A DNA stretch of 56,253 nucleotides from a virus (Duplodnaviria; Caudoviricetes). A program made the position numbers and the translations under genes. Below are positions 8,528 through 37,451 of this stretch, piece by piece. The stretch lies in the IMG/VR virus record IMGVR_UViG_3300025154_000119, positions 1 to 56,253 of that record; one strand, written 5' to 3'. The notes under the pieces are model-generated. The model had not been told where the DNA came from and searched no databases. It saw only the letters and a list, made by a program, of their open reading frames with translations. The first letter of the stretch is position 1. Every line of letters starts with the position of its first letter.

Positions 8528-8863
8528 ATGCACTGCCCAAACTGCGGACACAAAAAAACAGAGGCCGACGCCCACACCGAAAGGAATCGGTGCTGTAAAT
8601 CCATAATCTATCGAACCAGGACCTGCCCACTGTGCCTTGAAGTGTGGGTAACTCGTGAAGAAACCTGTTTGTGCGATATGGTTGGGGAGCAGATTTATGG
8701 CTTGCCGGTGGTCAACACGGCTTCTTACGATACTGTGGTTTTTAGGGTGAGGAAGGGGCAGAATGTTGTTATCCCAACAAAAGAGGAAATTTTGCCCTGG
8801 CAGTTGGACCGATATCGTGGAAACAAAAAGCCCCTGGGTGAGACTATACTTGGTCAAAAATAA
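8528..8863 (+). CDS. Zn-ribbon regulator (NrdR-N/Ogr-like); candidate late activator
   Basis: MHCPNCGHKKT...YRTRTCPLC...WVTRE; last early gene, 11 bp upstream of the first late palindrome. Confidence 0.6.
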   Translation: MHCPNCGHKKTEADAHTERNRCCKSIIYRTRTCPLCLEVWVTREETCLCDMVGEQIYGLPVVNTASYDTVVFRVRKGQNVVIPTKEEILPWQLDRYRGNKKPLGETILGQK

Positions 8864-8873
8864 AAAACCTCAT

Positions 8874-8928
8874 ATAGCGCTATCTGTAAAACCAAAAATT
8901 GAAGTCACAAATATTATGCGCGTATCAT
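8874..8928 (+). promoter_or_regulatory. Putative late promoter 1 (terminase block)
   Basis: ATAGCGCTAT at 8874-8883; TATCAT at 8923-8928. Confidence 0.65.
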
Positions 8929-9211
8929 CGCCATAATACCGCCGGGTCTGGCCCGGTCCCGAAAAGGCGCCCGGCAGAGTCCGATACAAAATGTCCAGGC
9001 CCTCACGGTAAACGCGCTACCTGTTCAACAGGTTTTTAATATCTCGGGGTGATCCGCCGGCCAGGGGCACCCGCAATACAATCGGGAGTTGTGGCCGGGG
9101 TTAATTGCCCCGAAAGGGGGGTGCGATATACGGCGGGGATAGAAAATTCGGACGATTCTGAGATTAACGGTTTTAACGGGTCTATTGGTTTTTAGTAATG
9201 AAGGTAAGTAA

Positions 9212-9742
9212 GTGCTTACAATAAAACAAGAAAACTTTTGCCTCGCATACTTTAAGACCGGAAACGCTTCGGAAGCGTATAGGGAGGCCTATGATGTTTC
9301 GAAGATGAAGCCGGAAACAATAAATCGGCGGGCTCACGATTTGGTCAATAACGGCAAGATCAAGGCAAGGATAGAGGATCTATATAAGCCTATCCGCGAT
9401 AAGTTGGTCGCCAGCAAGGAAAAAACGATCAAGCGCCTCATGCAGGGACAAGAATTCGACATCCGCGGCTTGTACCATGAGGACGGTAAATTAAAACAGC
9501 CCTATGAACTCGATGATGATACCGCAAAGGGTGTTGTCGGCGTCAAATACGACAAGGATACCGGTGCCCTTGTCGAATACAAGATAATCGATGTTAAGGG
9601 GTGCGCCGAGTTGATCGGGAAGCACCTCAAGCTGTGGGCGGACAAAGTTGAACTCTCCACTGATCCGACCGATCCAATCATGCAGGCAATCGCCCGTGCG
9701 GCCGGAGTATCCAAGGGCCTTCCTAAACCGGTGGTTGAATAA
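9212..9742 (+). CDS. terS: Terminase small subunit
   Basis: LTIKQENFCLAYFKTGNASEAYREAY HTH; AELIGKHLKLW. Confidence 0.92.
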   Translation: MLTIKQENFCLAYFKTGNASEAYREAYDVSKMKPETINRRAHDLVNNGKIKARIEDLYKPIRDKLVASKEKTIKRLMQGQEFDIRGLYHEDGKLKQPYELDDDTAKGVVGVKYDKDTGALVEYKIIDVKGCAELIGKHLKLWADKVELSTDPTDPIMQAIARAAGVSKGLPKPVVE

Positions 9743-11391
9743 TGGCAAACCTCCTCGATGATATCAACGCTATCCTCGGCCGCCGGCAGGCTATCAACGC
9801 ACTAATTACCGCAGGTGAAGATCCGGATCTCGCCAAGGCCATTACCGACCCAGAAAACCAGCGCTGTTATCACCACCTGGAAAAAATGGAATGGCCAGAG
9901 ATAGCCGAGGGCATCACGGATAAATGGTGGAGACTCAACAACCTCTATTACATCATCGATAAAACAGGCAAAAAGGTTTTGTTTCGTCCTAATTCTGCGC
10001 AGAAAAAATTATGGAATTCTGTATGGTATCGGACGGTTATATTGAAGGCAAGACAAAGAGGTTTTACCACATTCATCGATTTGTTTCTTCTCGATGAGGC
10101 CCTATTCACTCCCAATACGGAATGCGGTGTCATCGCCCACAACCTCGATGATGCCAAAAAGATTTTCCGGAGAAAGGTCAAATTCCCCTACGAATCCCTG
10201 CCTGAATCTATCCGCAAGAGGATACCGCTCAAAAAATCGTCCGAGTCGGAACTGATATTTGCCAACGGGTCCACCATGTCGGTGTCGGTGTCGTTCCGGT
10301 CCGCGACCGCTCAGTACCTGCACATATCCGAGTTCGGGAAGGTTTGCGCAAAGTTCCCGGAGAAGGCCCGGGAGATCGTAACCGGAGCGCTGGAAGCCGT
10401 AGCGCAGGGCCAGTTTGTTTTTATCGAGTCAACGGCAGAGGGCCGTTCCGGGTATTTTTACGACTACTGCAAAGCGGCCCAGGATTTGGAAAAAGCAGGC
10501 AAAAAACCATCCCCGCTTGATTTTAAGTTCTTTTTTTCCCCTTGGTGGGAAGATCCGGAATACACGATGGCCCCAGAGCATTACGCACCGATCAGCCAGG
10601 AGCACGCAAAATATTTCGCTGATCTGGAGGGCAAGATCGGAAGAGCTCTGACCCTCGGACAAAAGTCGTGGTGGGTGAAAAAGTTCTCGGTTCTCGGGGA
10701 GGATATGAAGCGTGAATACCCTGCAACGCCTGAAGAAGCCTTCCTGGTGAGCATCCAGGGCGCCTACTTCGCCTCTGAGTTCACGCGAGTTCGAAAAGAT
10801 CGGCGTATATGCGCGGTACCATATCAGCCGGCGGTATCTGTTGATACCTGGTGGGATCTTGGCATGAACGATATCATGGCAATTTGGTTCACTCAGGACA
10901 TTGGCCGGCAGATCCATGTCATCGATTATTTGGAGGGAAGCAACGAGGGGTTTGAATATTATTACCGACTCCTCACCGAGAAAAAATACAACTATGGCCA
11001 GCATTGGGCGCCGCACGATATCAGCGTGAAGGAGCTTGGCCCTGGGGCTATCCGGTGGGAGTCGGCTGCGAAGCTCGGGATCAGGTTTAATAGGGTGCCT
11101 AGGGTTAAAGACAAGCAGGATTCGATTCAGGCCGCTAGAAACATTTTCCCTATCTGCTGGTTCGATGAGGAGAAAACCGACCTTGGCATCCAGCGGTTGG
11201 AAAATTACCGTAAGGAGTGGGATGAGCACCTTGGAACATACCGGCGGACTCCGCTACACGATATTAATTCCAACGGGGCAGATGCCTTTCAAACGCTGGC
11301 CATGGGCCACACAAGGCATTTGCAAATGAGAACGGCGCAATCCGGTGTCGGGTCGGCGCCGGTAGAGTCAAAACCATACGCATGGACATAA
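9742..11391 (+). CDS. terL: Terminase large subunit
   Basis: ILKARQRGFTT Walker A, LHISE Walker B, IESTAEG, WDLG and ADAF nuclease motifs. Confidence 0.95.
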   Translation: MANLLDDINAILGRRQAINALITAGEDPDLAKAITDPENQRCYHHLEKMEWPEIAEGITDKWWRLNNLYYIIDKTGKKVLFRPNSAQKKLWNSVWYRTVILKARQRGFTTFIDLFLLDEALFTPNTECGVIAHNLDDAKKIFRRKVKFPYESLPESIRKRIPLKKSSESELIFANGSTMSVSVSFRSATAQYLHISEFGKVCAKFPEKAREIVTGALEAVAQGQFVFIESTAEGRSGYFYDYCKAAQDLEKAGKKPSPLDFKFFFSPWWEDPEYTMAPEHYAPISQEHAKYFADLEGKIGRALTLGQKSWWVKKFSVLGEDMKREYPATPEEAFLVSIQGAYFASEFTRVRKDRRICAVPYQPAVSVDTWWDLGMNDIMAIWFTQDIGRQIHVIDYLEGSNEGFEYYYRLLTEKKYNYGQHWAPHDISVKELGPGAIRWESAAKLGIRFNRVPRVKDKQDSIQAARNIFPICWFDEEKTDLGIQRLENYRKEWDEHLGTYRRTPLHDINSNGADAFQTLAMGHTRHLQMRTAQSGVGSAPVESKPYAWT

Positions 11392-11401
11392 GGAGGCCCG
11401 C

Positions 11402-13438
11402 ATGGAAACAGGGCTATTGCAGTGGAAAAGCAACGAAGAACTGATCGCCGACGAAGAAGAGGCCGCCAGGCGTGAACTGGAATCCATCCAGGGCAGGCCG
11501 GAAATAATCTCTCTCGCGGCCCATGTCCGTGCCAGGTGGGAAGCCGCAAGGCAGGCCAAAATGCCGCACGAACAACGAATGCTCAAAGCGCTCAGGATGC
11601 GCAATGGTGAATATGAGTCCGATCGGCTTGCCCTGATCCGGCAGTCAGGAGGGTCCGTAATTTACATGATGCTGCCGGATGAGAAATGCAACGCGGCCGA
11701 GGCGTGGATTGAAGATATTCTCGGGGATGAACCGTTTGGTACAAAGCCGACGCCCGTTCCGGATCTGTCGCCGCAACAGCGACAAGCTATTGAAAACCAA
11801 GTCCGCATGGAGGTAGCTCAAGAGCTTCAGATCTCAGGGATTATGCCGACCCAAGAGGCCGTTATGCAACGCGGCCGGGAGATTTTGGAAGAGGTCAAGG
11901 CCCATGTTGCAGAACAAGCCAAGCGTACAGAGATCCAAGTCGAGCAGAAAATCAAGGATTTGGTGGTGGAGTCCGGATGGAGCGATGCCTTAAAGTCCTC
12001 AATCACCGATATTGTCACGCACCCCGCCGGGTTTTTGAAGGGGCCAATTTTCAGGAAAAAGAAAGATCTCGCATGGGGGCCGGACGGAACGCCCGTTGTT
12101 CAGGACATAATCGCAATGGAATGGGAGAGCCCGAGCCCGCTGGATATCTACCCGGCGCCGACGTCAACAAAGATAGGGGATGGGTATCTATTCGAAAAGC
12201 ACCGGCTCACCCGGTCCGATTTGGTCGCAATGATGGGTGTTGACGGATTTGACGATACCGCTATCCGGCAGGTGCTTACCGAATACGGCAACGGTGGCCT
12301 CAACAATTGGATTTACATGGACAACGAGACCGAGCGAGCTCGGTTGGAGTCGAGAGACTACGAATCTCATGATCCGGATGGCAAAATCCACGCGTTGCAG
12401 TTTTGGGGAAATGTCCAGGGCCTCATGCTGCTCGAATACGGAATCGATCCAAGCATGGTGGAAGATCCAATTTCCGAATACAGCGCTGAAATTTGGTTAA
12501 TCGGCCGGTATGTGATTAAGGCCGAGCTGAATGGTGACCCCCTGGGGCGGCCCCCGTATTACAAGGCCCATTTCAGGGATAAAAAAGGCTCGTTTTGGGG
12601 CATGGGCCTGCCGGAGGTGATTGAGGATATCGTGGATATGTGCAACGCTTCGGCCAGGAATTTGGCAAACAACATGGCCATGGCCAGCGGACCCATGGTT
12701 GGGGTGGATGCTTCCGCGAAGATACCAGGGGTTGACTACGAGAATATGCGGCCGTGGAAAATCTGGCCGTTTGATCTCACCAACTCCCAGGGAACCAGGC
12801 CGCCTATCTGGTTTTTTCAGCCGAACGTAATGGTTAATGAGCTGATGGCGGTTTATGAGAAATTTAGCGCCGAGGCGGACAACAAATCCGGTGTTCCAAA
12901 ATACATGTACGGTGGCGAGAACCGCGGCGGCGCCGCGGACACTGCCAGTGGCATGTCAATGATGATGAGTAACGCCTCCAAGGCTATCAAAAAAATCATC
13001 CACAATATTGATGTCGGCATAATCGAGCCGTCTATCCGCCGGCTGCATCAAACCATCATGCTATACTATCCCGACCCGATCTATTTCCAGGGGGATATCA
13101 AATTTGTTGCCAAGGGATCAACCAGCATGATCGCCAAAGAGCAGATGCAGATTCGGCGCGGTGAATTCCTGAAGCTGATCATGAATCCTGTGCTTGCCCA
13201 GATTGTAGGCCAAGGGGGTATTGCTGAGGTCGCCAGGTCGATTGCCGACGGACTGGATATGGATGTTGACGATGTGGTCCCCACAAAAGAGGAGTTGGTG
13301 CAACGGCAAGCCGTTCAACAACAAATGATGCAGCAGCAGGCCCAGCAACAAGCAGCACTGCCACAATCCGGCGGAAAGCCGCAACCAACCAACCCGGCCG
13401 GTGATCGCGCCGGCGGGCAGGATTTCAGAACGTTTTAA
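11402..13438 (+). CDS. Portal protein (podovirus type)
   Basis: Follows terL; 678 aa; SPLDIYP, FWGMGLPE, ADTASGMSMMMSNA; Q-rich C-terminal barrel. Confidence 0.9.
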   Translation: METGLLQWKSNEELIADEEEAARRELESIQGRPEIISLAAHVRARWEAARQAKMPHEQRMLKALRMRNGEYESDRLALIRQSGGSVIYMMLPDEKCNAAEAWIEDILGDEPFGTKPTPVPDLSPQQRQAIENQVRMEVAQELQISGIMPTQEAVMQRGREILEEVKAHVAEQAKRTEIQVEQKIKDLVVESGWSDALKSSITDIVTHPAGFLKGPIFRKKKDLAWGPDGTPVVQDIIAMEWESPSPLDIYPAPTSTKIGDGYLFEKHRLTRSDLVAMMGVDGFDDTAIRQVLTEYGNGGLNNWIYMDNETERARLESRDYESHDPDGKIHALQFWGNVQGLMLLEYGIDPSMVEDPISEYSAEIWLIGRYVIKAELNGDPLGRPPYYKAHFRDKKGSFWGMGLPEVIEDIVDMCNASARNLANNMAMASGPMVGVDASAKIPGVDYENMRPWKIWPFDLTNSQGTRPPIWFFQPNVMVNELMAVYEKFSAEADNKSGVPKYMYGGENRGGAADTASGMSMMMSNASKAIKKIIHNIDVGIIEPSIRRLHQTIMLYYPDPIYFQGDIKFVAKGSTSMIAKEQMQIRRGEFLKLIMNPVLAQIVGQGGIAEVARSIADGLDMDVDDVVPTKEELVQRQAVQQQMMQQQAQQQAALPQSGGKPQPTNPAGDRAGGQDFRTF

Positions 13439-13446
13439 GGAGGCGC

Positions 13447-13722
13447 ATGATACGTCAACACTGTGAGGATAAAAGGGTTTTATCGGCAATTTCGTCATTG
13501 GAACACAACGAGGATTTCAAGCTGATTCGTGCATGGCTGAAATCCGAGTTGTCCGCCATGCGCGAAGAGTGCGACACCGAGCAGGGTATTCATTTGTCAT
13601 GGAACCAAGGCGCCTGCCAAGCGATATCAGCCGTCATCAGGGTCATCGAGACCGCCAGGGAAACGATACGAGCCATGGAGGCAAAAGGGCCTCCGGTGAT
13701 TGTGCATCATTCTTGGGTGTAG
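13447..13722 (+). CDS. Small head-associated protein (between portal and scaffold)
   Basis: GGAGG RBS; WL..EL......QG pattern typical of this position. Confidence 0.65.
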   Translation: MIRQHCEDKRVLSAISSLEHNEDFKLIRAWLKSELSAMREECDTEQGIHLSWNQGACQAISAVIRVIETARETIRAMEAKGPPVIVHHSWV

Positions 13723-13746: not shown

Positions 13747-13780
13747 AACCCGGTTTCCGATAAGGATTCCGGGTTTTTTT
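13747..13780 (+). terminator. Rho-independent terminator
   Basis: AACCCGG...CCGGGTT stem followed by T7. Confidence 0.8.
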
Positions 13781-13803: not shown

Positions 13804-13860
13804 CAGATAGCGCTATCTGCAAGCCGTTTTGTTGTTCTCTCCGCAACTCCTCTTTATCGT
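13804..13860 (+). promoter_or_regulatory. Putative late promoter 2 (scaffold/capsid block)
   Basis: CAGATAGCGCTATCTG 16-bp palindrome; TATCGT at 13855-13860, just after a terminator. Confidence 0.65.
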
Positions 13861-13931: not shown

Positions 13932-14951
13932 ATGACGGAAGAAGAAGCAAACGACCTGATCCCGGCATCAATCCGCGAACGTGCGGCCAAGGCCGATGAT
14001 ATGGTCAAAGCGCTAAACGCGAACTTCGGCAAAGAAGTTTCGGCCCAGCAGCAGGACGGCAAGGATACCGGCGAGGCATCGCAGGCCCAATCCGCCCAGC
14101 AGCAGGACACCGCAAACACCCATCCGGAGCAAACGCGGGCGGATGATGGCTGGAAGGCGAAGTATGACACCCTTCGGGGAAAATACGACGCCGAAATCCC
14201 ACGGCTGAGGGCTCAAATCACCCAATACGTCGCGGAGATAGACCAGCTGAAATCTGTTTTGCAGTCGCGCGCAGCAACCCCGGACACTGTTCGCCAACCA
14301 GGGGTGGCCACCCCTGACACTGGACGTCAACCCGGCGATGGAAATGGAAAAGACCCCACCGCATCGTTCGACCCCGATAGCCTGAAAGACTACGGGGAAG
14401 AGTTCGTCCAGCAAGGCCGGATCGTAAAAGATCTGATGGCAAAACTCGATCGTGTTATTTCTGAAAACGCGCAGCTAAAAGGGGCTGTGTCTCAGGTCGA
14501 GTCAAGCCAAAAGGCCAGCACGTATCAGCAGTTTCGCGCGCAACTCGCCGCAAGGGTTCCGGAAGTAGAGGTGTTAAACTCTGACCCCAATTTTTTGCAG
14601 TACCTGGGCCAGATACACCCCATCACCGGGCAACCCCTGATTGAGTCTCTGCGAAGTGCTGAAAAATCATTGGACGTCGAACGAGCGGTTTATTTCTTTG
14701 ATGAATATAAAAAATCGCTCGGCAGTCCAACCAAAGCGCCGCCAGTGACACCGCGAAAACCTCCGCTTTCTCCCGCACAGGGAAAGACAGCGACCGAACT
14801 CCCGCCGCAAGGCAAGTTGTGGACTCGCGCAGAAATCAAGCAGTTTTACGCCGATAAAATGCGAGGGGTCTACACCGGAAGAGATCAGGAAGCCGACAAG
14901 ATTGAGCGGGATATTTTCGCAGCGCAGGGGCAAGGAAGGATCGTCGGGTAA
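13932..14951 (+). CDS. Capsid scaffolding protein
   Basis: WKAKYDTLRGKYDAEIPRL coiled coil; C-terminal IFAAQGQGRI; precedes capsid gene. Confidence 0.85.
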   Translation: MTEEEANDLIPASIRERAAKADDMVKALNANFGKEVSAQQQDGKDTGEASQAQSAQQQDTANTHPEQTRADDGWKAKYDTLRGKYDAEIPRLRAQITQYVAEIDQLKSVLQSRAATPDTVRQPGVATPDTGRQPGDGNGKDPTASFDPDSLKDYGEEFVQQGRIVKDLMAKLDRVISENAQLKGAVSQVESSQKASTYQQFRAQLAARVPEVEVLNSDPNFLQYLGQIHPITGQPLIESLRSAEKSLDVERAVYFFDEYKKSLGSPTKAPPVTPRKPPLSPAQGKTATELPPQGKLWTRAEIKQFYADKMRGVYTGRDQEADKIERDIFAAQGQGRIVG

Positions 14952-14966
14952 TAGGAGATACCCGAA

Positions 14967-15917
14967 ATGGCTTACCCGATTGACGCCAGTTTAGGCACTT
15001 ATGCGAGTGCCGGTGGACTCAGTTCAACTTACATCCCGGAGATCTGGTCGAGTAAATTACTCGAAAAGTTCTATGCCACAACCGTCTTTGCGGCTATCGC
15101 AAACACGGATTACGAATCTGAAATCACGGCAATGGGCGATAAAGTTATCATCCGGACGGTTCCGGATGTAACGATTCGTGATTACAAGATCGGAATCAAC
15201 CTCAACTATGAGCGCCTGCGACAAGCAAACGTCGAACTGCTCATCGACAAGGGCAAGTATTACGCTTTCCCGGTGAACGATCTGGAAAAAAAGCAGTCCG
15301 ACATCAACTATGTCACCAAGTGGGCGGAAGATGCTGCGCAGCAGATGAAAATCACAATCGATTCCGAGATCTTGGGCGACATCTACGACGATGTTAACAG
15401 CGACAACACCGGAACGGCTGCCGGCAAGGAGTCGGAAGATATCAACCTGGGCACCACCGGTACAACCGGTGAAAGCGCCGTTGAGGTAACATCCTCCACG
15501 GTAATCGACAAAATCACCCTGTGCGGCCAGGTCCTGGACGAGCAAAACGTTCCGGAAACCGGGCGGTGGTTTGTTATCCCGGCGTGGATGGGCCAACGTA
15601 TTAAAACGTCGGATCTTAAAGACGCCAGCCTGACCGGTGACGGTAAATCGATTCTGCGCAACGGCCGTATCGGAATGATCGACCGGTTTGAAATTTTCGT
15701 TTCGAACTCTCTGACATCCGTCACCGAAACGTCAACGAAATGCTGGCATACGCTGTTCGGTCACAAGAGCGCGCTGACCTTCGCAAGCCAGCTCGTGAAG
15801 AACGAAACGCTCAAGAATCCGACCGATTTCGGAGATCTTGTGCGAGGGCTTCAGGTGTATGGATACAAGGTTATTCAGCCGACCGCTATCGGTACCCTGT
15901 ACGCCAAGGCTGGATAA
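14967..15917 (+). CDS. Major capsid protein (P22 coat-like)
   Basis: YIPEIWSSKLL, GDKVIIR, NGRIGMIDRF, FGDLVRGLQVYG. Confidence 0.92.
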   Translation: MAYPIDASLGTYASAGGLSSTYIPEIWSSKLLEKFYATTVFAAIANTDYESEITAMGDKVIIRTVPDVTIRDYKIGINLNYERLRQANVELLIDKGKYYAFPVNDLEKKQSDINYVTKWAEDAAQQMKITIDSEILGDIYDDVNSDNTGTAAGKESEDINLGTTGTTGESAVEVTSSTVIDKITLCGQVLDEQNVPETGRWFVIPAWMGQRIKTSDLKDASLTGDGKSILRNGRIGMIDRFEIFVSNSLTSVTETSTKCWHTLFGHKSALTFASQLVKNETLKNPTDFGDLVRGLQVYGYKVIQPTAIGTLYAKAG

Positions 15918-15935
15918 ATATCAGGATAACCGAAC

Positions 15936-15964
15936 AAAGAACCCCTGATTTTAGGGGTTCTTTT
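15936..15964 (+). terminator. Hairpin/terminator after the capsid gene
   Basis: AAAGAACCCCT-GATTTT-AGGGGTTCTTTT. Confidence 0.7.
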
Positions 15965-15983
15965 CCCAAAGGAGGGTTTTGAA

Positions 15984-16652
15984 ATGAGACACGAAAACCT
16001 GACCGTCCGGGAGTTATCCGGGTTGTCATTTTTGAATTTGTCAGGCGCTGTTATCGGCGCCGGCAGGACGGACGGAGCACTTATTAAGGCCGGATCAGCA
16101 ACGTCAAGAATCATAAAGGATGTTGCCGATACAAAGTTCATGGCGTTCTATTTTGATAATGGTGCATCGAGCGGGGATAACCGCGGGATGTATTTAAGGC
16201 AATATCTGACCGGCGGCGCCGGAGGAGAGGCCTTGCGAGTCTTCAACACGGTTGAAAACGTTACCGCTGGAACAGCCCATGGGGCACACATTAGCCTTAA
16301 CTTTGGCGCTACGGGGAAAGTATCCGGTCTCGGCGTTGCAATGCGGGCAACGCTTCACATCGCTAATCAAGCAACGCAGTCCGGCACAATGGCAGCCATC
16401 CAGGCCGAGATTTATAGCGATGGCACCACATCCGACCCCGCAAGCTCTGTTGTTTCGTGCATCAGGGTCGTTAACGATGGATCAGCAAAGGATGACGTCG
16501 ATGACGATGCCTTTTTGCTCGATCTTTCCGGTTGGACAAAAGGCGCAGGTCACATGGTGCAAACAGATACCGGCAATGTCGATACACTTCTGAAATGCCG
16601 AGATGTTGATGGTACCAACATCTATATCATGTGTACCAAAACCATTACTTAA
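15984..16652 (+). CDS. Putative head fibre/decoration protein
   Basis: GGAGG RBS; G/A/T-rich beta-type sequence directly after the capsid gene. Confidence 0.5.
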   Translation: MRHENLTVRELSGLSFLNLSGAVIGAGRTDGALIKAGSATSRIIKDVADTKFMAFYFDNGASSGDNRGMYLRQYLTGGAGGEALRVFNTVENVTAGTAHGAHISLNFGATGKVSGLGVAMRATLHIANQATQSGTMAAIQAEIYSDGTTSDPASSVVSCIRVVNDGSAKDDVDDDAFLLDLSGWTKGAGHMVQTDTGNVDTLLKCRDVDGTNIYIMCTKTIT

Positions 16653-16672
16653 TCTTCAAAAGGAAAGGACTT

Positions 16673-16993
16673 ATGCAATTACGAGTGGCTGATAGGCTGG
16701 TGCTTCTGAACTCTATTCCCGCCACCGGGGATATTACGACCTTGAAAATAGTCCGGAAGTTGAGGGAACAATTATCTTTTACGGAAAAAGAACATTCCGA
16801 GCTTAAGTTCAAAGAGGAAGCAAGCCATGTTTTTTGGAATACAGAAGCAGATACGCCAAAAGATATCAACATAGGGCCTAAAGCCGCTCAAATTGTTTCA
16901 GATGCCCTGCAACTACTCAATAAACAGAAAAAATTAACCGAGGACCATTTGCCTGTATGGGAAATGTTTTGCTCGGAAAACGAAGAGGAGTAA
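16673..16993 (+). CDS. Hypothetical protein (possible fibre chaperone)
   Basis: AGGA RBS before ATG 16673; helical. Confidence 0.6.
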   Translation: MQLRVADRLVLLNSIPATGDITTLKIVRKLREQLSFTEKEHSELKFKEEASHVFWNTEADTPKDINIGPKAAQIVSDALQLLNKQKKLTEDHLPVWEMFCSENEEE

Positions 16994-16996
16994 ACT

Positions 16997-17347
16997 ATGA
17001 AGTTTGTAACCGATGAAAGTTATGGGAAAGTGCGACGGGTATTATCCGGAACTATCGGCATTACCGAGCAGGCAAATATCATCGGCATTGTACCGCTTGG
17101 CGCCGTTATCAAAAAGGTTGTTGTAGGAATCACAACTGTTTATGACGGGTCCGCGACGATCGATATCGGAAACGCCACTACGGCTGGCGCCTACATGGCC
17201 AACACCCTGATTACCGAGGGAACGGTGGGAACCTATACGGCATACCCCAACTCGACGTTGACAGCGGACACACCGGTGCTGGCGACTGTTGCCGGAGGGA
17301 CAATTACCACCGGTGCCGCTGTGGTCGAAATCCATTACGAAATTTAA
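16997..17347 (+). CDS. Virion structural protein (capsid cement/spike-like beta sandwich)
   Basis: VPLGAVI...ITTVYDG.ATIDIG...TTGAAVVEIHY. Confidence 0.6.
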   Translation: MKFVTDESYGKVRRVLSGTIGITEQANIIGIVPLGAVIKKVVVGITTVYDGSATIDIGNATTAGAYMANTLITEGTVGTYTAYPNSTLTADTPVLATVAGGTITTGAAVVEIHYEI

Positions 17348-17368
17348 CGAGCGTGCTTTAGGCGCGTA

Positions 17369-17399: not shown

Positions 17400-17417
17400 A
17401 CTATGGAGGATATACCG

Positions 17418-28480: not shown

Positions 28481-31400
28481 ATGATGCCCGACATATTTGA
28501 CGAGTGGTATGCAGAAATAGCACCCCCAGCAGCACCCAGCACTCCGGCGAGATCGACCTTTGATGATTGGTGGGGAAGCCCGGCGGAACCCGCCGTGGAA
28601 CCCGTGCCTCAAAAAATAACCGATGCTGATCTTGACCAGTGGGCGGCAGAAGTTGAGCCTTCATTTATGGATAATTTGGCAGCCGCACCAGTGGAGGCAC
28701 TAAAAGGCTGGGTCAGGGGAGCAAACAGCATTCCGGAAAGCGCCGGCGCCGCCATGGAGTATGCCGGGCGACGGCTTGAAACCACTCCTGAAGAGCAAAT
28801 CCAAAACGGGATAAACCGCCTGAACCCAAACCAGCAAGGCGAAATCATCAACAAGATGATTGATTGGTCAAGGCCCGGGGTTGACGAAGATGCTTCTTTT
28901 AACCGCGCGGCCAAGCAAACCATTGAAAAATACGCTCCGATATCGGCACTTAGGGGAGCCGCAATGGATGCCGGGAACGCCATCGCGCCGCATTTAATCG
29001 ACGCCGGCAGGGCCACCTCGGATTATTACAAAGACATGGCAAGCGGCTATAAGGCCGATGCGAGCTTTGAAAATAAAAACCTTTGGGATAACCCAGACCT
29101 TCTTTTGAATCCGGCATGGTGGTCATCGAGCACCGCCGAGATGATGCCGCAATTGATAGCAACACTGATTCCGGCAGCAGGGATTCAATCCGCTGTAACC
29201 CGTGTGGGGGCAAGCCTTATTCCGCAAACCGTCGAAGCTTCGGCAAGGCTGGTAAAGCTTGGCCGGTTTATCGGGGCAGCCGGTGGTGGTGCCGCCGGCG
29301 GAGGAATGGAGGCGACGCAAACCTATAGAGACGTGCTCGAAACAACTGGCAATGAAAAAGAGGCCGCAAGGGCCGCTGAATTTATGGGCGTTGCATCCAG
29401 TATCCTTAACACAGTCGGCAATGCCGAAATTCTTGAATATGCCGGCAAATCGTTTTTGAAGAAGGTCGGTCGAGGGTTTGTTGTCGAGGGGGCATCTGAA
29501 GGCCTTGAGGAACCCGCAGATGTTTCCGGCAGGATGTTATCGAAAATCATCAACGGGGAAGATCTCCCGGATGATGTAGCCAACCTTTATCTTGATTCGC
29601 TGAAATCTGCATTGACTGTTTTCCCGATAGCAGGGGTTACCGGTGCGGCCGGTGCGGCCGGAACGCATTTCAAAAGCAAGGGCGCCGCCGTCAATCTTCT
29701 TGAAAGCAAGGCGGCGGATACAGATTTGGCCGCCCAACTCCGGGCGACTGTCGCCGATGCTCCGGTGGGAGACGGAACAATTCCCCTTGACACCCCGGCG
29801 CCCCCGGGCGGGTTTGGTTTCCCAGTTCAGGACCAAGCGGAAATGGACGCCATGGAGCAAGATATCATCCGGCAACGTCAAACCGCCCTTGCTGGCCCAG
29901 AGATTCAGGCAACACCGCTTCAGGTCCAAAACCAAGCAAAAATTGACCGGTATGCGGCGGACCAAGCGGCAGCCGAGCAAGATCAGATTCGTCAGGCCCA
30001 GCAGGCGCAAGGACTCGGGAAAACCGGGGAGGTTCTCGGGCAGGGCGTTGATCAGGCCAGACAAACACAAGAGCTTTTGTATCGTGCTGGCGGGCTTCCG
30101 GTTCCGGAGCAGACGCCGAACCGGTTAGCCTTACCGTTTCCGGATAGCATCGACCCAAACGCGATACCGCTTCCATACGATGACACCACCTATGACAGCA
30201 TTTTTGATCAATGGGAAGCTGAGGAGGAAATGGAGGCTCCCACGGGTGCTCGGACTGCAATTCCGATGGATAAGCGTCAGGTTGGTTTTGAAACGGTTGG
30301 AGAATCCTATCCATACAGTTCCGGCGATAGTACTCCGGTGACTGAGCGGCCAAATATGGCGCTTTTAGCTGGACCACCCGTACCTGATTCGAAGGTTGCT
30401 CCTGTTGGAATGAGTGCCCCTGAAAGCCCAAAGCCTGAAACCAAAAAGGAAAAATCCCGCAGAGAATACAATGAATTTGTTTCTGGGTTATCAGAGCAGC
30501 AACTTGAAAAAGTGAAAGGCTTGATTCCGGATACCGAACCAGATCTCCCCGGTTCTGTTCTGTTGAAGATAAAGGCAAAACTTAAAGCCGATCCGCCAGG
30601 CGCTGAAGCGGTAACAGAGCCGGTTATGGCTGATTCCATCAATCAACCATCAAATAAAGATGTTGAGGAAAGTTGGGATGTTGGGGTCGCTGCGCCTGTT
30701 GTTGGGGTTGAGGCGTCAAGCAAAGTCGAGCCTCCGAAGGCAACCCGTTTTCCGCAAAGTCACGTTGACGATCTGTATGCAAAAAACATCATCCATCCGG
30801 TTGCTGACGCACAGCAATCCACAGAGATAGAGACGGACCCTGCGAGAGTGCAAGAGATAAAAAATAGCATCGCAGAGGGCGAAATTATTTTAAAATCCGG
30901 AAAAACAATATCCGGAAAGAGAATGCTCCCTGAGCAACTCGCAGCCGTTCAAAGAGCGGTTGATAGTAGTTATTTAAAGATAGGCGGGAAAGCCCCGCAA
31001 AAAACAACCGAAGGAGGTGATGCAAATGTCCAAACAGAAGGGCAAGGGCAAACCCAAGCCCTGCCGAAAATAAAATCAGGTCCACAGGAAGTGACCGACC
31101 CAACAACGCCCCCCGCCGAATCGATCCCCGGCGGGGGATCAAAAAACATCGTCAAGGGTAAACAGGGAACCGCTTACACCCAGAAAAACGATCCGGTTGG
31201 TTTCCATTATGCCGTTGTTGATGCAGATGATCTTGTGGTCTCGCACGATGCCGAGTTTCATAAAAACGAAGCCTATCCTCAAGAGCTTCAGCCAAGAGAC
31301 CGGGACAGGTCCGCCCTTCGTCTTCAGGTTGAAAAAATAGCCAACACCATCAATCCGGCAAGGCTTGGTCAATCCGCTGGGGTTTCTTCGGGGGCTCCTA

Positions 31401-34400
31401 TCGTGGGCCCGGATATGGTGGTCGAGTCTGGAAACGGCCGAAGCATAGCGCTACGAAAGGCATTCGCCCTTGGGAAGGGCGAGGCTTACCGGAAGTTCTT
31501 GGCGGATAATGCGGAAGATTTTGGGGTTAACCCAGACGAGATCGGCAGCATCAAAAACCCGGTTCTTGTCCGGGTTCGGGCTGATTCTAAAATGGATCGC
31601 GCGAATTTTGCAAAAGAAGCCAACCGGGATGAAATAGCTCGGATGAGCCCGCTTGAACAGGCCATATCTGATGCTGAACTTATCACCGATGACGATATTT
31701 CTATGTTTAAACCGTCAGATGATGGCGCTATTTCACCACACGCAAATTCTGCTTTTGTGAAGCGGTTTTTTACCAAGATGGGCGGGAACGAATCCGCCGG
31801 CTTAATGACCGATGACGGACGGATCACAAAGACCGGCCTTGACCGGTTGCAAGCCGCCGTATTTGCTAAGGCATATGCCGATAAGAATATCGTCGAGTTG
31901 CAAGCAGAGGAGGCCCACCCTGATATCAAAACGATTATCAACGCGCTCAATATCGCGGCCGGAGAGTTTGCGAAAGCTCGGTCCAACGGGGACGCTTTTA
32001 ACGCACTTGATATAACAAGTGATATAGTTGAGGCCGCAAAGATTGTCCGCCGATCGCGCAACGAAAAGACAACTGTCTCCCAAATCGTTAACCAAAAGGA
32101 TATGTTTTCGAAGCGATCCGTTGAATCCGAAGTACTTGCACAATTTTTTGATAACAACATTCGGCGCGGGAAGCACATGGGAACCGCCCTAAAGAAGATG
32201 GCGGAGACAATCAAGAATGATTTGCAAAATAGGAACCAGCTTGATATGTTTGGCAAGAAGCTTAAGATTACCAAGCAGGACGCCATAACGCGAGGAATCG
32301 AATATGCAGACGCCGAAAGAGATAACGGACAACGACAAAAGGGTCTATTTGATAGCAGTTTTGACGAAGGCAATCGAGGAGACCAACAAGGAAAACTCGA
32401 ACGATCCTCCTCTGGAAATCCCGAAAGAGTGGTTGACGGAGGTGTAAATGAGCGATCCAATTCCTATCAAACCGTACTTGAAAAACCAACCCAACTCTCC
32501 TTTGATTTCAAACCATCAAAACGCGAAGGTAATAAGACCGGAGCTGTTCTTCCGGTATCGAATCCGGCCAGAGTCAGAATGTCAACGACTGGGGACATAC
32601 ACGCCGCCGGAACCGTGGTGCGGGATTCCGCCGACGCCGCCGCCCTTCTTGCCCATATAAGAAAAGCCGCCCAGGAAAACCTCTACTTCGTCACAACCGA
32701 TAAGGACGGACTTGTCCTTGAAATACACAGGTACAGTAAAGGGGAAAAAGCTTCCGCAGCTTTTAATTCTATTGAGGCTACCGGGGGCATCCTTCGTATT
32801 CCAAGAGCTGCCCACACCTACATGGTTCACAACCACCCGAGCGGCACCCTTTTTAGGTCCAACCTTTTGGAAGATAGTTCTGGTGCAAGCGATCAAGACG
32901 TCCTGGCGCTGAAACGGCTCTCATCCAATTTAGGCCTTAAGGGCATTTCTGCTCATGGCCTCATCATTGAGGGTACAACCTATACTGATTTTACGCCTGG
33001 ATCTGATTACGAGCGAAAACCAATCAGGGCGACGATACGAAAGGTTAAGCTCCCAGTAAAAGAGCGTATTTTTAAATACAGCGCGCAGCCCTCAGGCCAG
33101 CAGGAAATGTTGAACAGCCCCGAAAAAGTGGCTGAAGTTATAAAAAACAAATACGGCGACAAGGACGGGTTGATGTTCCTGAACACCGGACTTTTTGATG
33201 TTGGGTTTATGCCGTGGCCCAAGGGGGAGAATCAAAGAGTCGCAGTCGCCAAAATAATATCTGAAGCTGAACAATTAAACGCAAGGGGCTTTGTCGTTAA
33301 CCTGTCAGAAATAAGCCCAGAACGTATGCAGTTTATCAAAGACGTCGCCGCCGGCACCCGGCTGGAGCTCTTCGATGTTATTGAAAGCGGGGACTCTTTT
33401 TACAGGAAAGATACTTGGAGGCTCTCTGGCTCGGCTGTAAGCTCGGAAGAGGCCTCTATCGATAGACTTAATTCGATAGAAGATAGGCCGCTCTATTCTA
33501 CATCCCCCTTATCGCCTCAATCCGGCATCACCCTAAAAGACGTCCGAGATATGTTCCCCGGAATGGCCGTCACAGACTCCGGGTATGGCAAGTTCACCCT
33601 CACAAATCCTGCCGGCAAAGCCATCACCGTCGAGACCGTCAGTCGCATCGGCATCGATGATGGCGCCTTTGAAATATCGTACCAGCGCAAACCCACATCC
33701 GAAGAAAAGGCCCGTGGCGCCGCAGGGTCATACCAGAACGGAACGATAAAGATCTCAAAATCAGGCGACCGATGGTCCCTTGCCCATGAAGCCTATCACC
33801 ACCTCGAAGCATCGGGTATGATCAGCGCCGGGGATATACTAGTGCTGAATGAGGCTGTCAAGAAGGCCGGCGGTAGGGCCACCGAAGAAGCCCGCGCCAG
33901 GTTCGTTGAGGACATGCGGTACAAGCGGGACTCTGTTTCCGGCCGGTTGCGGAAGCTTTTGCATAAAATCAGGGATTTGATTGACGGGTTTGTGAACTTG
34001 TTTCGGCGGACCGCCAAGGGGGTTATTCGGGATATTGAGTCAGGGTCGATATCCAAGGGAGAAATATCAAACAGCCAGATGACCGCCGCGGCCCCGGCCT
34101 ATCAAATAAAAACCGACTTCTCAAAGCAGCTTGATGATTTTATTTCGCGTGGGGAAACAGGACAACGAAACTATGGCGAACTCATAACAGTTGGGTGGAC
34201 CCCCGACGTGCTTTTGGCCCTTGGCGCAAAAAAATACCCTGTTACTATGTCGCCAAAGGTAGCCATAAAAATTCTTAACGACCGAGAAGACAGGCGAGGC
34301 ATCCCTGTTGAAACATTAAAACAAATCCCGGAAGCTATCGCTGACCCGATAATGGTGTTCGATTCTAAAACTGCGCCAAAAGGGCAAAGCCTTGTTGTTG

Positions 34401-37372
34401 TAACAGAATTAAAAAGCCCAGAGAATAAGACTATAATCGTTGCTATTTATTTAAACCAGCGCAACAAGCGGCACGAAGTTAACGCCATTGGCAGCCTATA
34501 TGGTAAAGACAAGGATCCTTGGTTTGTTGACCAGATTAAAGAGGGTAGGCTTAGATATATAAACAAAAAAAAGAGCAACCGATGGTCTCAATCCGCCGGG
34601 CTCCAATTGCCCCTGGAGGAGACCACCAATGGCTCTTCTAACCGGAAGATACTGTTTGATCACGATATTGTCAAGCCAAAAACTCAATATTCAGGCACCA
34701 ACCCCAGAACCAATAACGATCCCTTCGCCGAAGAAAACCGACGCCTCCGGGAGCAGGACAAAACCCTTTGGGAGAAAGCGGGCAAAGTCCTAAAGCGCCA
34801 ACTTGCCCCGGGCGGTCTTCTCCCCGATGAAGTGTTCTCGGAAAAGATCAAGCGCGACTCAGAGTTCAACGTGGTCGAGATGGATACCGAGCGGCTTGTA
34901 GTAGCCTTTGAGCGGGCAGTCAAGAAGGATTACGGGAAAACGTTTCAAGGTTTGCCGTTCGCAAAGCAAAAGGAACTTGCAGATGCCCTCGCCGGGAAGG
35001 TGCCGGCCAACATGCCGGAAGGGACCAAAACGACTATCGTGGCCATGCGCCGGTACATTGACGGCCTGTCCCTTGATTATGCCGATATCCTCTTTAAGCA
35101 GGCCGAACAGATAGCGCGAGACGGTAAAAACGACGCGGCCGCCGCGGCGAAAGTGGATCTCCTCAACACCATTGCAGGGAATGTGGGGCAATACGTTCAT
35201 CGGTCGTACCGGGTGTTTGATGATAAGAATTGGTTTAAGAAGGTTCCGACCGAAATCATCAACGATGCCAGGCTTGCCCTGCGCGACCAATACATGGAAA
35301 AAGGCGAAACCCAAAAAGACGCCGATACCATGGCGGATCGGGCCATCAACAAGATTTTGAAGACCGGAACCGCTTTCGACAGTATGGAAAGCTTCATCAA
35401 AGAATCTAAGCTTGGCGCCAAGGACTTGAGCGTCTTGAAACGGAGGAAGGATATCTCCCCGGAGATCCGGGCGCTACTCGGGCAGCACATCGACCCGCGG
35501 GTGAACTTCGCCAAGACCGCCACCAAAATGGGGCGGCTGGTTTGGAATCAGCGGTTCCTTGACAAGATCCGCGAGACCGGTATGGGAGTTTTTCTGTTCG
35601 AGGATGAAAATGCGCCGGCCGGGGCCACCAAGCAGATCGCAGCCGATCAATCAGAAACTTATTCCCCGCTGAATGGCCTTTGGACCTTTCCGGAAATAGA
35701 CCAAGCATTCAAAGATGCCCTCGGCAAAGAGCAGATGCCGGACTGGTTGCGAACCATCGTTCAGGTTAACGGCGCCATAAAATTCGGGAAAACGGTCCTG
35801 TCTCCAACTACGGCGGCCAGAAACTGGCAATCCGCCATGTTCTTTGCGCTGGCAAACGGCCATTTCAACATGACCCACATGGCAAAGTCGATAACCTCAT
35901 TGCAGGAATATTTCAACGCGAACGGAAGCGACGCCAAATTCCAGTATCTCAGAAAACTGAAGCAGCTCGGGGTGGTTTACGACTCCCCTTATGCCGGCGA
36001 GATGATGCGCCTTTTGGCTGATAGCCAAATGGCAGATGATCTGATCCGGGGTACCGGCCATAGGACCCTTAAAAACATGATAGGGTACGCCCAAAAATTC
36101 TATCAGTTCGGGGATGATTTTTGGAAAATTATCGGATTCGAGAACGAAAAAACGGCCTTTATGCGGACCGGTATGGATGAGGCGGAGGCCGAGAAGGAAG
36201 CGGCCGAGCGTATCCGGAACACCTACCCGACTTACAGCATGGTTGGGAAAGCAATCAAATCCCTCGCCAGGTTTCCCCTGGTGGGCACCTTCGTAAGTTT
36301 TCCAGCGGAGATCATCCGCACCCAGGCGAACATGCTTAGCTATGTCGCCCAGGATTTCAAAACGCCCGGGCGGAAAAAGATGGCGCTCAGGCGGATGGCT
36401 GGAATGGCCATATCGGCCGGCGCGATTTATGCGCTCCAAGCGGTATCAAAGGTAATTTTGAGCGTCGATGACGAAGAAGACGAGGCGACGAGAAAGCTTG
36501 CGGCGCCATGGCAACGGAACTCTAATCTTTGGTATCTGAACAGGGAAAAGGACGGATCGCTTCGCTATATCGATCTGAGTTTCCTTGACCCATACGGATA
36601 CTGGAAGCGGCCGATAACGGCGATACTCCGGGAACAGCCTTGGGAGCAGAAATATGCCGATGTGGCGAAAGAAACACTTGGGCCTTTTCTTGGGACAGAT
36701 ATTCTTGCCGGGGCAATCCTTGAGGTTTTTACCAACAAGCGCTTCGACACTAAAACCAAAATTTACAAAGAAAGCGATTTTATGCCCGGGCAAACTGCCG
36801 ACATCGCCAAGCACCTTGCACAAAAGCTTCAGCCAGGCATTATGACAAATGCCATGCGAACGTACAAAGCAATCGACGGCCAGGTCTCCCCTTCCGGGAA
36901 AAAATATAACCTTGAAGATGAAATGATGGCGCTTGTCGGTTGGAGATTCACAACGGCAGATCCGAAAATCGCCCTTTATTACCGGGTATTCGAATTTAAC
37001 GACGCCAAAAAAGAAGCCTCAAGCGGCCTCTACCGGGTTCTCAGGGATAAAAACGCAGTCGATAAAGAGGCCATTAAAGACGCTTACGTCTACACCACAA
37101 AGCTCCGCAAAAAAGCATATGCTGAAATGGCCGGGCTGATTCATGCTGCGGAAAAAAGCGGTATGACCGATCCCCAAATTATCTCCGTTCTGCGAGCAGG
37201 CAATATTTCAAAAACTGATATCGCGGCCTTAATGATGGGCAATACCGCCGCTTGGAAGATGAGCCCTCAGAGTATAAAAAACGATGCCAAAAAGAGCGAG
37301 GTTCTTTTCGGAACCGGCGGCGAAACGCTGAAGCGGTACCAACAGCTTCTTGAAATATCGCAAGCAAAATAA
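28481..37372 (+). CDS. Giant injected polyvalent protein (2963 aa)
   Basis: ParB-like (QPRDR...GAPIV...VESGNGR), JAB (HNHPSG...SDQD), zincin (AHEAYHH), MuF-C-like (GWTPDVL...LKQIPEAIADPIMVFDS...SLYGKD...GLQLP), large helical C-terminus. Confidence 0.85.
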   Translation: MMPDIFDEWYAEIAPPAAPSTPARSTFDDWWGSPAEPAVEPVPQKITDADLDQWAAEVEPSFMDNLAAAPVEALKGWVRGANSIPESAGAAMEYAGRRLETTPEEQIQNGINRLNPNQQGEIINKMIDWSRPGVDEDASFNRAAKQTIEKYAPISALRGAAMDAGNAIAPHLIDAGRATSDYYKDMASGYKADASFENKNLWDNPDLLLNPAWWSSSTAEMMPQLIATLIPAAGIQSAVTRVGASLIPQTVEASARLVKLGRFIGAAGGGAAGGGMEATQTYRDVLETTGNEKEAARAAEFMGVASSILNTVGNAEILEYAGKSFLKKVGRGFVVEGASEGLEEPADVSGRMLSKIINGEDLPDDVANLYLDSLKSALTVFPIAGVTGAAGAAGTHFKSKGAAVNLLESKAADTDLAAQLRATVADAPVGDGTIPLDTPAPPGGFGFPVQDQAEMDAMEQDIIRQRQTALAGPEIQATPLQVQNQAKIDRYAADQAAAEQDQIRQAQQAQGLGKTGEVLGQGVDQARQTQELLYRAGGLPVPEQTPNRLALPFPDSIDPNAIPLPYDDTTYDSIFDQWEAEEEMEAPTGARTAIPMDKRQVGFETVGESYPYSSGDSTPVTERPNMALLAGPPVPDSKVAPVGMSAPESPKPETKKEKSRREYNEFVSGLSEQQLEKVKGLIPDTEPDLPGSVLLKIKAKLKADPPGAEAVTEPVMADSINQPSNKDVEESWDVGVAAPVVGVEASSKVEPPKATRFPQSHVDDLYAKNIIHPVADAQQSTEIETDPARVQEIKNSIAEGEIILKSGKTISGKRMLPEQLAAVQRAVDSSYLKIGGKAPQKTTEGGDANVQTEGQGQTQALPKIKSGPQEVTDPTTPPAESIPGGGSKNIVKGKQGTAYTQKNDPVGFHYAVVDADDLVVSHDAEFHKNEAYPQELQPRDRDRSALRLQVEKIANTINPARLGQSAGVSSGAPIVGPDMVVESGNGRSIALRKAFALGKGEAYRKFLADNAEDFGVNPDEIGSIKNPVLVRVRADSKMDRANFAKEANRDEIARMSPLEQAISDAELITDDDISMFKPSDDGAISPHANSAFVKRFFTKMGGNESAGLMTDDGRITKTGLDRLQAAVFAKAYADKNIVELQAEEAHPDIKTIINALNIAAGEFAKARSNGDAFNALDITSDIVEAAKIVRRSRNEKTTVSQIVNQKDMFSKRSVESEVLAQFFDNNIRRGKHMGTALKKMAETIKNDLQNRNQLDMFGKKLKITKQDAITRGIEYADAERDNGQRQKGLFDSSFDEGNRGDQQGKLERSSSGNPERVVDGGVNERSNSYQTVLEKPTQLSFDFKPSKREGNKTGAVLPVSNPARVRMSTTGDIHAAGTVVRDSADAAALLAHIRKAAQENLYFVTTDKDGLVLEIHRYSKGEKASAAFNSIEATGGILRIPRAAHTYMVHNHPSGTLFRSNLLEDSSGASDQDVLALKRLSSNLGLKGISAHGLIIEGTTYTDFTPGSDYERKPIRATIRKVKLPVKERIFKYSAQPSGQQEMLNSPEKVAEVIKNKYGDKDGLMFLNTGLFDVGFMPWPKGENQRVAVAKIISEAEQLNARGFVVNLSEISPERMQFIKDVAAGTRLELFDVIESGDSFYRKDTWRLSGSAVSSEEASIDRLNSIEDRPLYSTSPLSPQSGITLKDVRDMFPGMAVTDSGYGKFTLTNPAGKAITVETVSRIGIDDGAFEISYQRKPTSEEKARGAAGSYQNGTIKISKSGDRWSLAHEAYHHLEASGMISAGDILVLNEAVKKAGGRATEEARARFVEDMRYKRDSVSGRLRKLLHKIRDLIDGFVNLFRRTAKGVIRDIESGSISKGEISNSQMTAAAPAYQIKTDFSKQLDDFISRGETGQRNYGELITVGWTPDVLLALGAKKYPVTMSPKVAIKILNDREDRRGIPVETLKQIPEAIADPIMVFDSKTAPKGQSLVVVTELKSPENKTIIVAIYLNQRNKRHEVNAIGSLYGKDKDPWFVDQIKEGRLRYINKKKSNRWSQSAGLQLPLEETTNGSSNRKILFDHDIVKPKTQYSGTNPRTNNDPFAEENRRLREQDKTLWEKAGKVLKRQLAPGGLLPDEVFSEKIKRDSEFNVVEMDTERLVVAFERAVKKDYGKTFQGLPFAKQKELADALAGKVPANMPEGTKTTIVAMRRYIDGLSLDYADILFKQAEQIARDGKNDAAAAAKVDLLNTIAGNVGQYVHRSYRVFDDKNWFKKVPTEIINDARLALRDQYMEKGETQKDADTMADRAINKILKTGTAFDSMESFIKESKLGAKDLSVLKRRKDISPEIRALLGQHIDPRVNFAKTATKMGRLVWNQRFLDKIRETGMGVFLFEDENAPAGATKQIAADQSETYSPLNGLWTFPEIDQAFKDALGKEQMPDWLRTIVQVNGAIKFGKTVLSPTTAARNWQSAMFFALANGHFNMTHMAKSITSLQEYFNANGSDAKFQYLRKLKQLGVVYDSPYAGEMMRLLADSQMADDLIRGTGHRTLKNMIGYAQKFYQFGDDFWKIIGFENEKTAFMRTGMDEAEAEKEAAERIRNTYPTYSMVGKAIKSLARFPLVGTFVSFPAEIIRTQANMLSYVAQDFKTPGRKKMALRRMAGMAISAGAIYALQAVSKVILSVDDEEDEATRKLAAPWQRNSNLWYLNREKDGSLRYIDLSFLDPYGYWKRPITAILREQPWEQKYADVAKETLGPFLGTDILAGAILEVFTNKRFDTKTKIYKESDFMPGQTADIAKHLAQKLQPGIMTNAMRTYKAIDGQVSPSGKKYNLEDEMMALVGWRFTTADPKIALYYRVFEFNDAKKEASSGLYRVLRDKNAVDKEAIKDAYVYTTKLRKKAYAEMAGLIHAAEKSGMTDPQIISVLRAGNISKTDIAALMMGNTAAWKMSPQSIKNDAKKSEVLFGTGGETLKRYQQLLEISQAK

Positions 37373-37396
37373 AGCTCCGTCCTTCAAAATTTACAC

Positions 37397-37451
37397 ATAG
37401 CGCTATTTAAAATCGATGTGGTTGCTATGATTATTTATCAAAATATATGTT
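37397..37451 (+). promoter_or_regulatory. Putative late promoter 3 (lysis/accessory fibre block)
   Basis: ATAGCGCTAT at 37397-37406; TATGTT at 37446-37451. Confidence 0.6.

Follow-up and report, generated by a model that had tools for sequence, protein, structure and literature searches.

To our knowledge, the control of late genes is understood for few phage groups, and in most of the uncultured phages that we know of, a Q, Ogr, Mor/C, RinA or sigma gene cannot be recognised. In phage lambda, Q is encoded at the end of the early rightward operon, where it is followed by the late promoter, a leader and a terminator. Ogr activates via the alpha subunit of RNA polymerase, the RinA, ArpU and LtrC regulators are, as far as we know, not zinc ribbons, and the boxes recognised by NrdR are 16 bp in length. 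Ogr and Delta are reported to act from a dyad located upstream of each late start and to share the cysteine motif CX2CX22CX4C (PMC3931495). Studies on the RinA/ArpU/LtrC regulators of Gram-positive phages place their genes directly upstream of terS and describe control of the packaging, morphogenesis and lysis operons (PMC3152322, PMC3753634), and a study of NrdR describes paired zinc ribbons that bind each palindromic NrdR box via arginines and two base-reading residues (PMC9110341). In the literature library that we searched, no paper was found on NrdR-type or zinc-ribbon late activators of phages.

Here, we have analysed a stretch of phage DNA of 56,253 nucleotides (the window), which is a whole linear IMG/VR virus record with an estimated completeness of 83%. 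An earlier note on this sequence had suggested that a palindrome found three times marks a late regulon, controlled in the manner of P2 Ogr by the product of an adjacent zinc-ribbon gene. Our results demonstrate that the three sites are one conserved class of cis-element placed before late gene blocks (Table 1). Judging from the sequence, we lean, if only slightly, towards an Ogr-like activation of three late promoters by the product of this gene, hereafter P0001. The DNA runs in which the phage occurs are labelled as groundwater and soil metagenomes; contigs from four DNA runs are identical in sequence to the window, with no natural variation, and none of the RNA runs searched for positions 8400-15000 contained the phage.

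The phage combines a lambdoid early region with podoviral structural genes, as had been recognised before. Its closest cultured relatives, with a match over the terL DNA only, are Pseudomonas PS-1, Burkholderia phages of the Bcep22 type and Ralstonia podophages. The early and replication operon is contiguous and runs rightward. It includes a lambda O-like initiator (4406), a DnaB helicase (5278), a dGTP/dATP diphosphohydrolase-like gene and a VRR-NUC nuclease (8123), and the gene of P0001 is its last ORF. On the 3' side of this gene follow terS, terL, an SU10-type portal, a scaffold-like gene, the major capsid gene and an SU10-type adaptor, and then tail and internal virion genes, a polyvalent protein of 2963 aa and a GH108 endolysin (Pfam, PHROGs). 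The ORF of the polyvalent protein (28481-37372) carries ddrB-ParB, RadC-like JAB and MuF_C domains, in the manner of the virion-type giants of Bcep22-like phages. Among the 62 ORFs scanned, Pfam recognised no Q family, sigma factor or other late regulator, which agrees with the earlier remark that no Q gene can be recognised. The leftward arm of the window holds recombination and helicase genes. There, the minus-strand ORF at 50300-50983 encodes a metallo-beta-lactamase-fold protein and adjoins a RecT-like gene; its match to the anti-Pycsar protein Apyc1 is weak and below threshold (21.4 bits, cut-off 50), and it is more likely a recombination exonuclease partner than an Apyc1.

Table 1. Features of the late-gene control region and of the gene blocks that it precedes (positions in the window).
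Feature	Position	Strand	Basis or remark
Gene for the 111-aa zinc-ribbon protein P0001	8528..8863	+	ORF list, translation
Late block 1: terS, terL, portal, 91-aa ORF	9212..13722	+	Pfam, PHROGs
Late block 2: scaffold, major capsid, adaptor, tail, internal virion proteins, 2963-aa polyvalent protein	13932..37372	+	ORFs, Pfam, PHROGs
Late block 3: GH108 endolysin and two ORFs 3' of the endolysin	37447..38874	+	Pfam, PHROGs
Site 1, CATATAGCGCTATCTG	8871..8886	.	starts 8 bp past the regulator stop codon, before terS
Site 2, CAGATAGCGCTATCTG, perfect 16-bp palindrome	13804..13819	.	before the scaffold gene; best-conserved intergenic block in five lineages
Site 3, CACATAGCGCTATTTA	37394..37409	.	before the lysis genes
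Candidate late promoter 1, TTGAAG-18-TATCAT	8899..8928	+	predicted start ~8935, palindrome centre ~-56.5
Candidate late promoter 2, TTGTTC-17-TATCGT	13832..13860	+	predicted start ~13867, palindrome centre ~-55.5
Candidate late promoter 3, TTGCTA-18-TATGTT	37422..37451	+	predicted start ~37458
Conserved GC-rich leader before terS	8935..9211	+	277 nt; two sequence blocks in common with L006 800-1080
Hairpin and T run ending block 1	13748..13780	+	found by eye; the simple scan skips loops >8

The palindrome ATAGCGCTAT is present in exactly three copies in the window (8874, 13807 and 37397), where 0.02 copies are expected, and none of 100 dinucleotide shuffles reached three. Each copy lies in an intergenic gap that precedes a late block (8864-9211 for terS at 9212, 13723-13931 for the scaffold gene at 13932 and 37373-37446 for the GH108 endolysin at 37447), so that the triple occurrence claimed at the outset is borne out. 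The claim of a 10-mer stood as to its three exact copies and fell short as to length, since the full palindrome extends over 16 bp and follows the pattern CAGATA-N4-TATCTG. When up to three arm mismatches are allowed, this pattern matches the window 28 times (21 expected from shuffles), and the only intergenic matches are the three sites. One mismatch in the 10-mer brings five more copies, for a total of eight against 1.1 expected; we did not count these as sites, as all five are inside ORFs and their outer arms are absent. We also set aside CAGATGACATTATCTG (23886-23901), which has perfect 5-bp arms and lies inside the tail-fibre gene with no TTG at +20.5. A further element, AGCATAGCGCTACGAA (31442-31457), is intragenic with poor arms and has a TTG at +20.5; both of these could be chance occurrences or weak internal sites.

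It can be objected that the motif was picked after the fact and that the five mismatched copies within ORFs betray some compositional excess, in which case the repeat would be due to chance or without function. We find this hardly credible in view of the shuffles and of the intergenic position of all three copies. Furthermore, the element is kept in place in five lineages despite diverged flanks, and its distance to a downstream TTG is fixed.

This geometry was examined in nine sites from five lineages, aligned in register on the centre of the palindrome. A TTG begins at centre+20.5 in eight of the nine and at +19.5 in the ninth (L014), for a background frequency of 0.019 per position, and an xAxxxT hexamer stands 16-18 bp past TTGnnn in 8/9 sites (background 0.18). 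In the window, these hexamers read TATCAT, TATCGT and TATGTT; the L006 record has CAATAT, TACCCT and TAGAAT, L005 has TATTTT, and L009 has GAAAAT. The TAnnnT elements first noticed 49, 48 and 49 bp after the palindrome are all where they were said to be (TATCAT at 8923, TATCGT at 13855 and TATGTT at 37446), and the strings TATCATCGCCATAA and TATCGTCGCATAA, described as similar continuations, are both present. If the start of transcription is assumed to lie about 7 nt past the hexamer, the centres of the palindromes are predicted at -55.5 to -56.5. The annotation of the P2 record gives the same spacing, as its activator sites have their centres 55-58 bp before the mapped late starts, and the P2-like geometry that had been proposed would apply if the predicted starts are right.

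A simple sigma-70 scan of positions 8400-14100 returned candidate promoter 1 as its only plus-strand match (9/12). Candidate promoters 2 and 3 fall below the threshold of the scan, promoter 3 with fewer than 9/12 matches, which fits promoters that depend on an activator. The position of the -10 element can be read in another way in some relatives, as better -10-like hexamers occur at centre+32.5 in L005 (TATAAT), L009 (TAAAAT) and L014 (CATAAT), and L014 has no good hexamer at the spacing of the proposed -10. A -10 element at centre+32.5 would put the palindrome near -44.5 instead of about -56, and these hexamers weaken the activation reading. At the third site, the predicted late start would imply that the endolysin begins at the ATG at 37486, 13 codons downstream of the start of the longest endolysin ORF, with AGAGGG (37470-37475) as its ribosome-binding site.

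The region between the first candidate promoter and terS carries a terminator-like hairpin with a T run at 9019-9033, about 90 nt downstream of the predicted start, and this hairpin is kept in L006 with compensatory changes in its stem. A GAAA-loop hairpin is also found in the leader. When the DNA pattern of the leader was searched in viral_contigs, the L006 contig was the sole match, and Rfam returned no match at the gathering score for the whole window and none at E<=1 for 8860-9215. The leader could be an attenuator, an insulator or an element related to packaging, and its hairpin could insulate the late genes against early read-through. A plain activator model does not account for this hairpin, which therefore counts against simple activation.

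These elements can be read as in lambda: in a Q-like antitermination, P0001 would join the polymerase at the palindrome of a promoter that fires by itself, and would carry it through the hairpin at 9019-9033 and through later terminators. The early operon indeed ends with this gene, and the first late promoter comes directly after it; this promoter alone passes the sigma-70 scan, and the terminator-like hairpin that follows it has been maintained in L006. However, no terminator-like hairpin separates promoter and gene at sites 2 and 3, and a hairpin followed by a new, site-bearing promoter (13748-13860) would be needless for a polymerase that has become resistant to termination. Moreover, the site is placed some 20 bp before the -35-like TTG and not within the promoter or the initial transcribed region, and there is no Q family in the Pfam results. 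We consider this mechanism quite unlikely. The hairpin and T run directly 5' of site 2, which have an analogue in L005 and in L006, fit separate operons and not one read-through transcript. In the 5' untranslated region of the scaffold mRNA, a further hairpin stands between GACACC and GACCGC (window 13891-13908; L005 ~590-603; L006 ~5858-5876; L009 ~7007-7023); the sequences of its stem vary by lineage, as if structure and not sequence were selected.

What could bind these sites? The cysteines of P0001 are arranged as C3-X2-C6-X26-C33-X2-C36. The alignment of its family (A1, seven sequences) has C3, P4, C6, I27, R29, R31, C33, C36, T42 and E44 as invariant positions, and the conserved pattern IxRxR...C..C...T.E is common to the P0001 family and NrdR. 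The family profile matches NrdR chains (7p37, E 8.9e-8), and all seven members match the Pfam model Zn_ribbon_NrdR (PF22811) at E<=5. Against a cut-off of 27.2, the L014 form scores above (45.6 bits), and P0008 (26.8) and P0001 itself (13.9) score below; the position of P0001 under the Pfam thresholds weakens the activation reading. The AlphaFold model of P0001 is of middling confidence (pLDDT 68.8); 42 of its residues can be superposed on NrdR ribbons at 1.4-1.6 A (Z 4.0), and the E-values to NrdR in Foldseek are weak (0.15-0.4). By sequence and by this model, the nearest relative of the N-terminal 45 residues is the ribbon of NrdR, and P0001 is thus predicted to carry an NrdR-type zinc ribbon. 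No ATP-cone was matched by Pfam in the window ORFs or in the P0001 family. Residues ~50-100 form a small beta-rich C-terminal part in the model, for which the fold search gave no standout match. As paired NrdR ribbons occupy each palindromic box, a dimer of P0001 on the 16-bp palindrome would be the natural reading; a homodimer prediction on the protein alignment scored 0.01 and gave no verdict.

Relatives of P0001 are scarce. An exhaustive search of 1.84 billion representatives gave six matches, and a search of 5.8 billion clusters gave two proteins, with five from a profile search. The only PHROG matched is phrog_10675, whose function is unassigned and which matches 7/7 members of the family. 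The nearest Atlas cluster (score 0.89, a lead only) groups 57 viral proteins with a length of about 64 aa, and 37% of these carry PF22811. With tblastn, P0001 had no match in 50,697 phage records, and a search of phage records with the L014 form gave only NrdR-like matches, full-length or partial. Scans of viral_contigs with P0001, P0004 and P0005 returned nothing usable. With the alignment A2, a metagenome scan found none, and the sole match of a genome scan was an irrelevant ribbon fragment that we discarded.

We followed gene and site in the relatives, for which a capsid-based scan of IMG/VR yielded 80 loci. The relatives are all partial records (14-58% complete), so a further regulator encoded elsewhere is possible. 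In L005, L006, L014 and the group L009/L011/L012/L013, the last with one 16-mer in common, the motif (up to two arm mismatches) precedes the scaffold gene by 125-160 bp. These motif-bearing loci are those with a capsid identity of at least 64%. When the intergenic regions of the five lineages are aligned, conserved blocks stand out at the palindrome and at the TTG, for a mean column identity of 51%. In a profile search of all six-frame ORFs, the zinc-ribbon gene was confined to the window, L006, L009, L012 and L014, and in each of them it lies directly upstream of terS. The profile had been built with the sequences of the window, L006 and L014; those of L009 and L012 were outside it. Among the 37 loci whose sequence reaches 6.4 kb or more upstream of the capsid gene, four have the gene, the same four have the motif and the other 33 have neither (the 73-locus count excludes L013, which has 1.1 kb upstream only). 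The earlier note had named relatives that keep the protein but not the motif as evidence against its proposal; on checking, gene and site are kept together. This co-occurrence is a trait of a single clade and not a series of independent events. A second metagenome scan with the capsid protein gave no new motif-bearing member of the clade; loci with 58-63% capsid identity have neither the motif nor the gene. No relative was found in a scan with the scaffold protein.

The protein of the L006 record is 40% identical to P0001, and this record also contains three sites, whose centre differs from that in the window (GTCCRT against AGCGCT): CAGATGTCCATATCTG, CAGATGTCCGTATTTG and CAGATGCGGACATTTG, the last inverted. 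One site precedes terS and is located inside the 3' end of the regulator gene, one precedes the scaffold gene and one the homologue of window gene 24471, and all three have the TTG at +20.5. An asymmetric centre that is inverted at the third site while the TTG stays at +20.5 is what would be expected of a site for a symmetric dimer. In L009/L012 and L014, the proteins are shorter (67-87 aa), with one good site each and none adjoining the gene, and this weakens the activation reading. There (L009 1100-1990, L014 430-1150), the short zinc-ribbon gene abuts terS and is preceded by small genes on the minus strand and by an AT-rich promoter region, so that a regulator encoded in this position would be co-transcribed with the terminase genes. 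In L071 and L068, we rejected CACTAGCTAGTG as an analogous site, as it is a cassette with a stop in all frames and a ribosome-binding site right before start codons. One late gene after another carries it directly 5' of GGAG and the start codon (L071 1131, 3734, 8896 and 12988; L068 465, 5627 and 9719).

The separation of gene and site in L009, L012 and L014, where the gene abuts terS, could mean that the palindromes are read by another factor, either of the host or a phage regulator that we did not recognise, and that P0001 has another job, such as a packaging helper next to terS. Many early ORFs are without family assignment, and the partial state of the relatives leaves room for such a factor. 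Against it, gene and motif occur together in 4/4 loci and are jointly absent in 33/33, and the first site follows the gene within 8 bp in the window or is inside its 3' end in L006. In addition, this type of ribbon is described as reading palindromes as a pair (PMC9110341). We regard another factor as unlikely, and on the sequence evidence P0001 is the leading candidate for a protein that would bind the three palindromes.

Based on these results, the Ogr-like activation that we favour would proceed as follows. P0001 would be produced last from the early rightward operon, and each 16-bp palindrome would be bound by a pair of NrdR-type zinc ribbons. The palindromes would serve as upstream activator sites, centred about 56 bp before the start of weak late promoters of the sigma-70 type, and the bound P0001 would recruit the host RNA polymerase, so that the packaging, head/tail and lysis operons would be switched on separately. 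In this model, we infer that P0001 binds these sites, that its effect is activation and where transcription starts. With regard to the late regulator first proposed as Ogr-like, the sites, the geometry and the joint retention of gene and site speak for it; what does not carry over is the protein family, which is of the NrdR type, and the sequence of the site.

One possible alternative would be that P0001 acts as NrdR does: bound to the palindromes, it would hold down the late promoters or read-through, as a timer or an autoregulator. All characterised proteins with this ribbon are reported to be repressors (PMC9110341, PMC12176259), and the gene of L009 and L014 stands first in the terS operon, preceded by an AT-rich promoter region of its own. 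That the characterised proteins (NrdR) are repressors, with two boxes and an ATP-cone, also weakens the case for activation. Nevertheless, the palindrome is clear of the -35- and -10-like elements, at a fixed 20.5 bp upstream of the TTG, the core elements have the weakness typical of promoters that depend on an activator, and P0001 has a single box per promoter and no ATP-cone. The phage also needs its late genes on once the early operon has run. Repression is, in our opinion, distinctly improbable, and the role of P0001 is probably opposite to that of NrdR, namely activation.

If confirmed, activation by P0001 would represent a reuse of the DNA-reading module of NrdR as an activator, and would give a rule by which the late promoters of this clade (Bcep22/SU10-like temperate podophages) can be located. 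The set is compact (a 111-aa protein, a 16-bp site and three promoters), and a relative supplies a natural variant of specificity. The pair would also give a function to small viral zinc ribbons that are now labelled hypothetical. As a more speculative extension, which we find doubtful, stand-alone NrdR-type ribbons (phrog_10675 and the Atlas cluster of 57 proteins), a class of small phage proteins that has yet to be characterised, could be a general family of late activators that act from 16-bp palindromes at about -56 and form an evolutionary bridge from the cellular repressor NrdR to Ogr/Delta, with the leader hairpin as a second layer of control. If true, this second layer in the terS leader would be antitermination or insulation.

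Placed among the systems described above, the locus shares features with each of them. As in lambda with Q and pR'/tR', the regulator gene ends the early operon, and a late promoter comes immediately after it, with a short leader that contains a terminator-like hairpin; unlike in lambda, the site recurs before two more late blocks, upstream of the -35-like element, and no Q family was detected. The position of the gene directly upstream of terS recalls RinA/ArpU/LtrC, but no such family appears among the Pfam and PHROG matches of P0001, and the hosts differ. With NrdR, P0001 shares an N-terminal zinc ribbon with two CxxC motifs and palindromic boxes of the kind bound by a pair of ribbons. The key distinctions are that NrdR has an ATP-cone and nucleotide sensing and P0001 has neither, that NrdR uses two boxes about three helical turns apart over the promoter whereas the sites here are single, kilobases apart and upstream, and that the sequence of the box differs.

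The closest parallel in layout is Ogr/Delta/B of P2, P4 and 186 (PF04606), in which a small phage zinc protein also serves several late promoters with weak core elements. In the P2 record the dyad lies ~55-58 bp upstream, and here it is predicted at -55.5 to -56.5 when xAxxxT is taken as the -10 element. At the level of the protein, the likeness is distant: hhalign gives a probability of 64.7% (E 6e-5) over 43 columns of the ribbon, and P2 Ogr matches Zn_ribbon_NrdR weakly (E 0.0068). P0001 has no match to Ogr_Delta (PF04606) at E<=5, and among the seven family members only the L014 form matches it (E 0.047, 14.1 bits against a cut-off of 26.3), on a model that gives P2 Ogr, as a control, 76.9 bits. 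The lack of a PF04606 match and the spacing of the cysteines, CX2CX26CX2C in P0001 versus CX2CX22CX4C in Ogr, rule out membership of P0001 in Ogr/Delta. P0001 also has the extra beta-rich C-terminal part, the site is CAGATA-N4-TATCTG here and TGT-N12-ACA for Ogr, and this phage is a Bcep22/SU10-like podophage with a lambda-O/DnaB module whereas the P2-like phages are myophages. The system, in which P0001 most likely switches on the late genes, resembles P2 Ogr in its layout but uses a different protein family.
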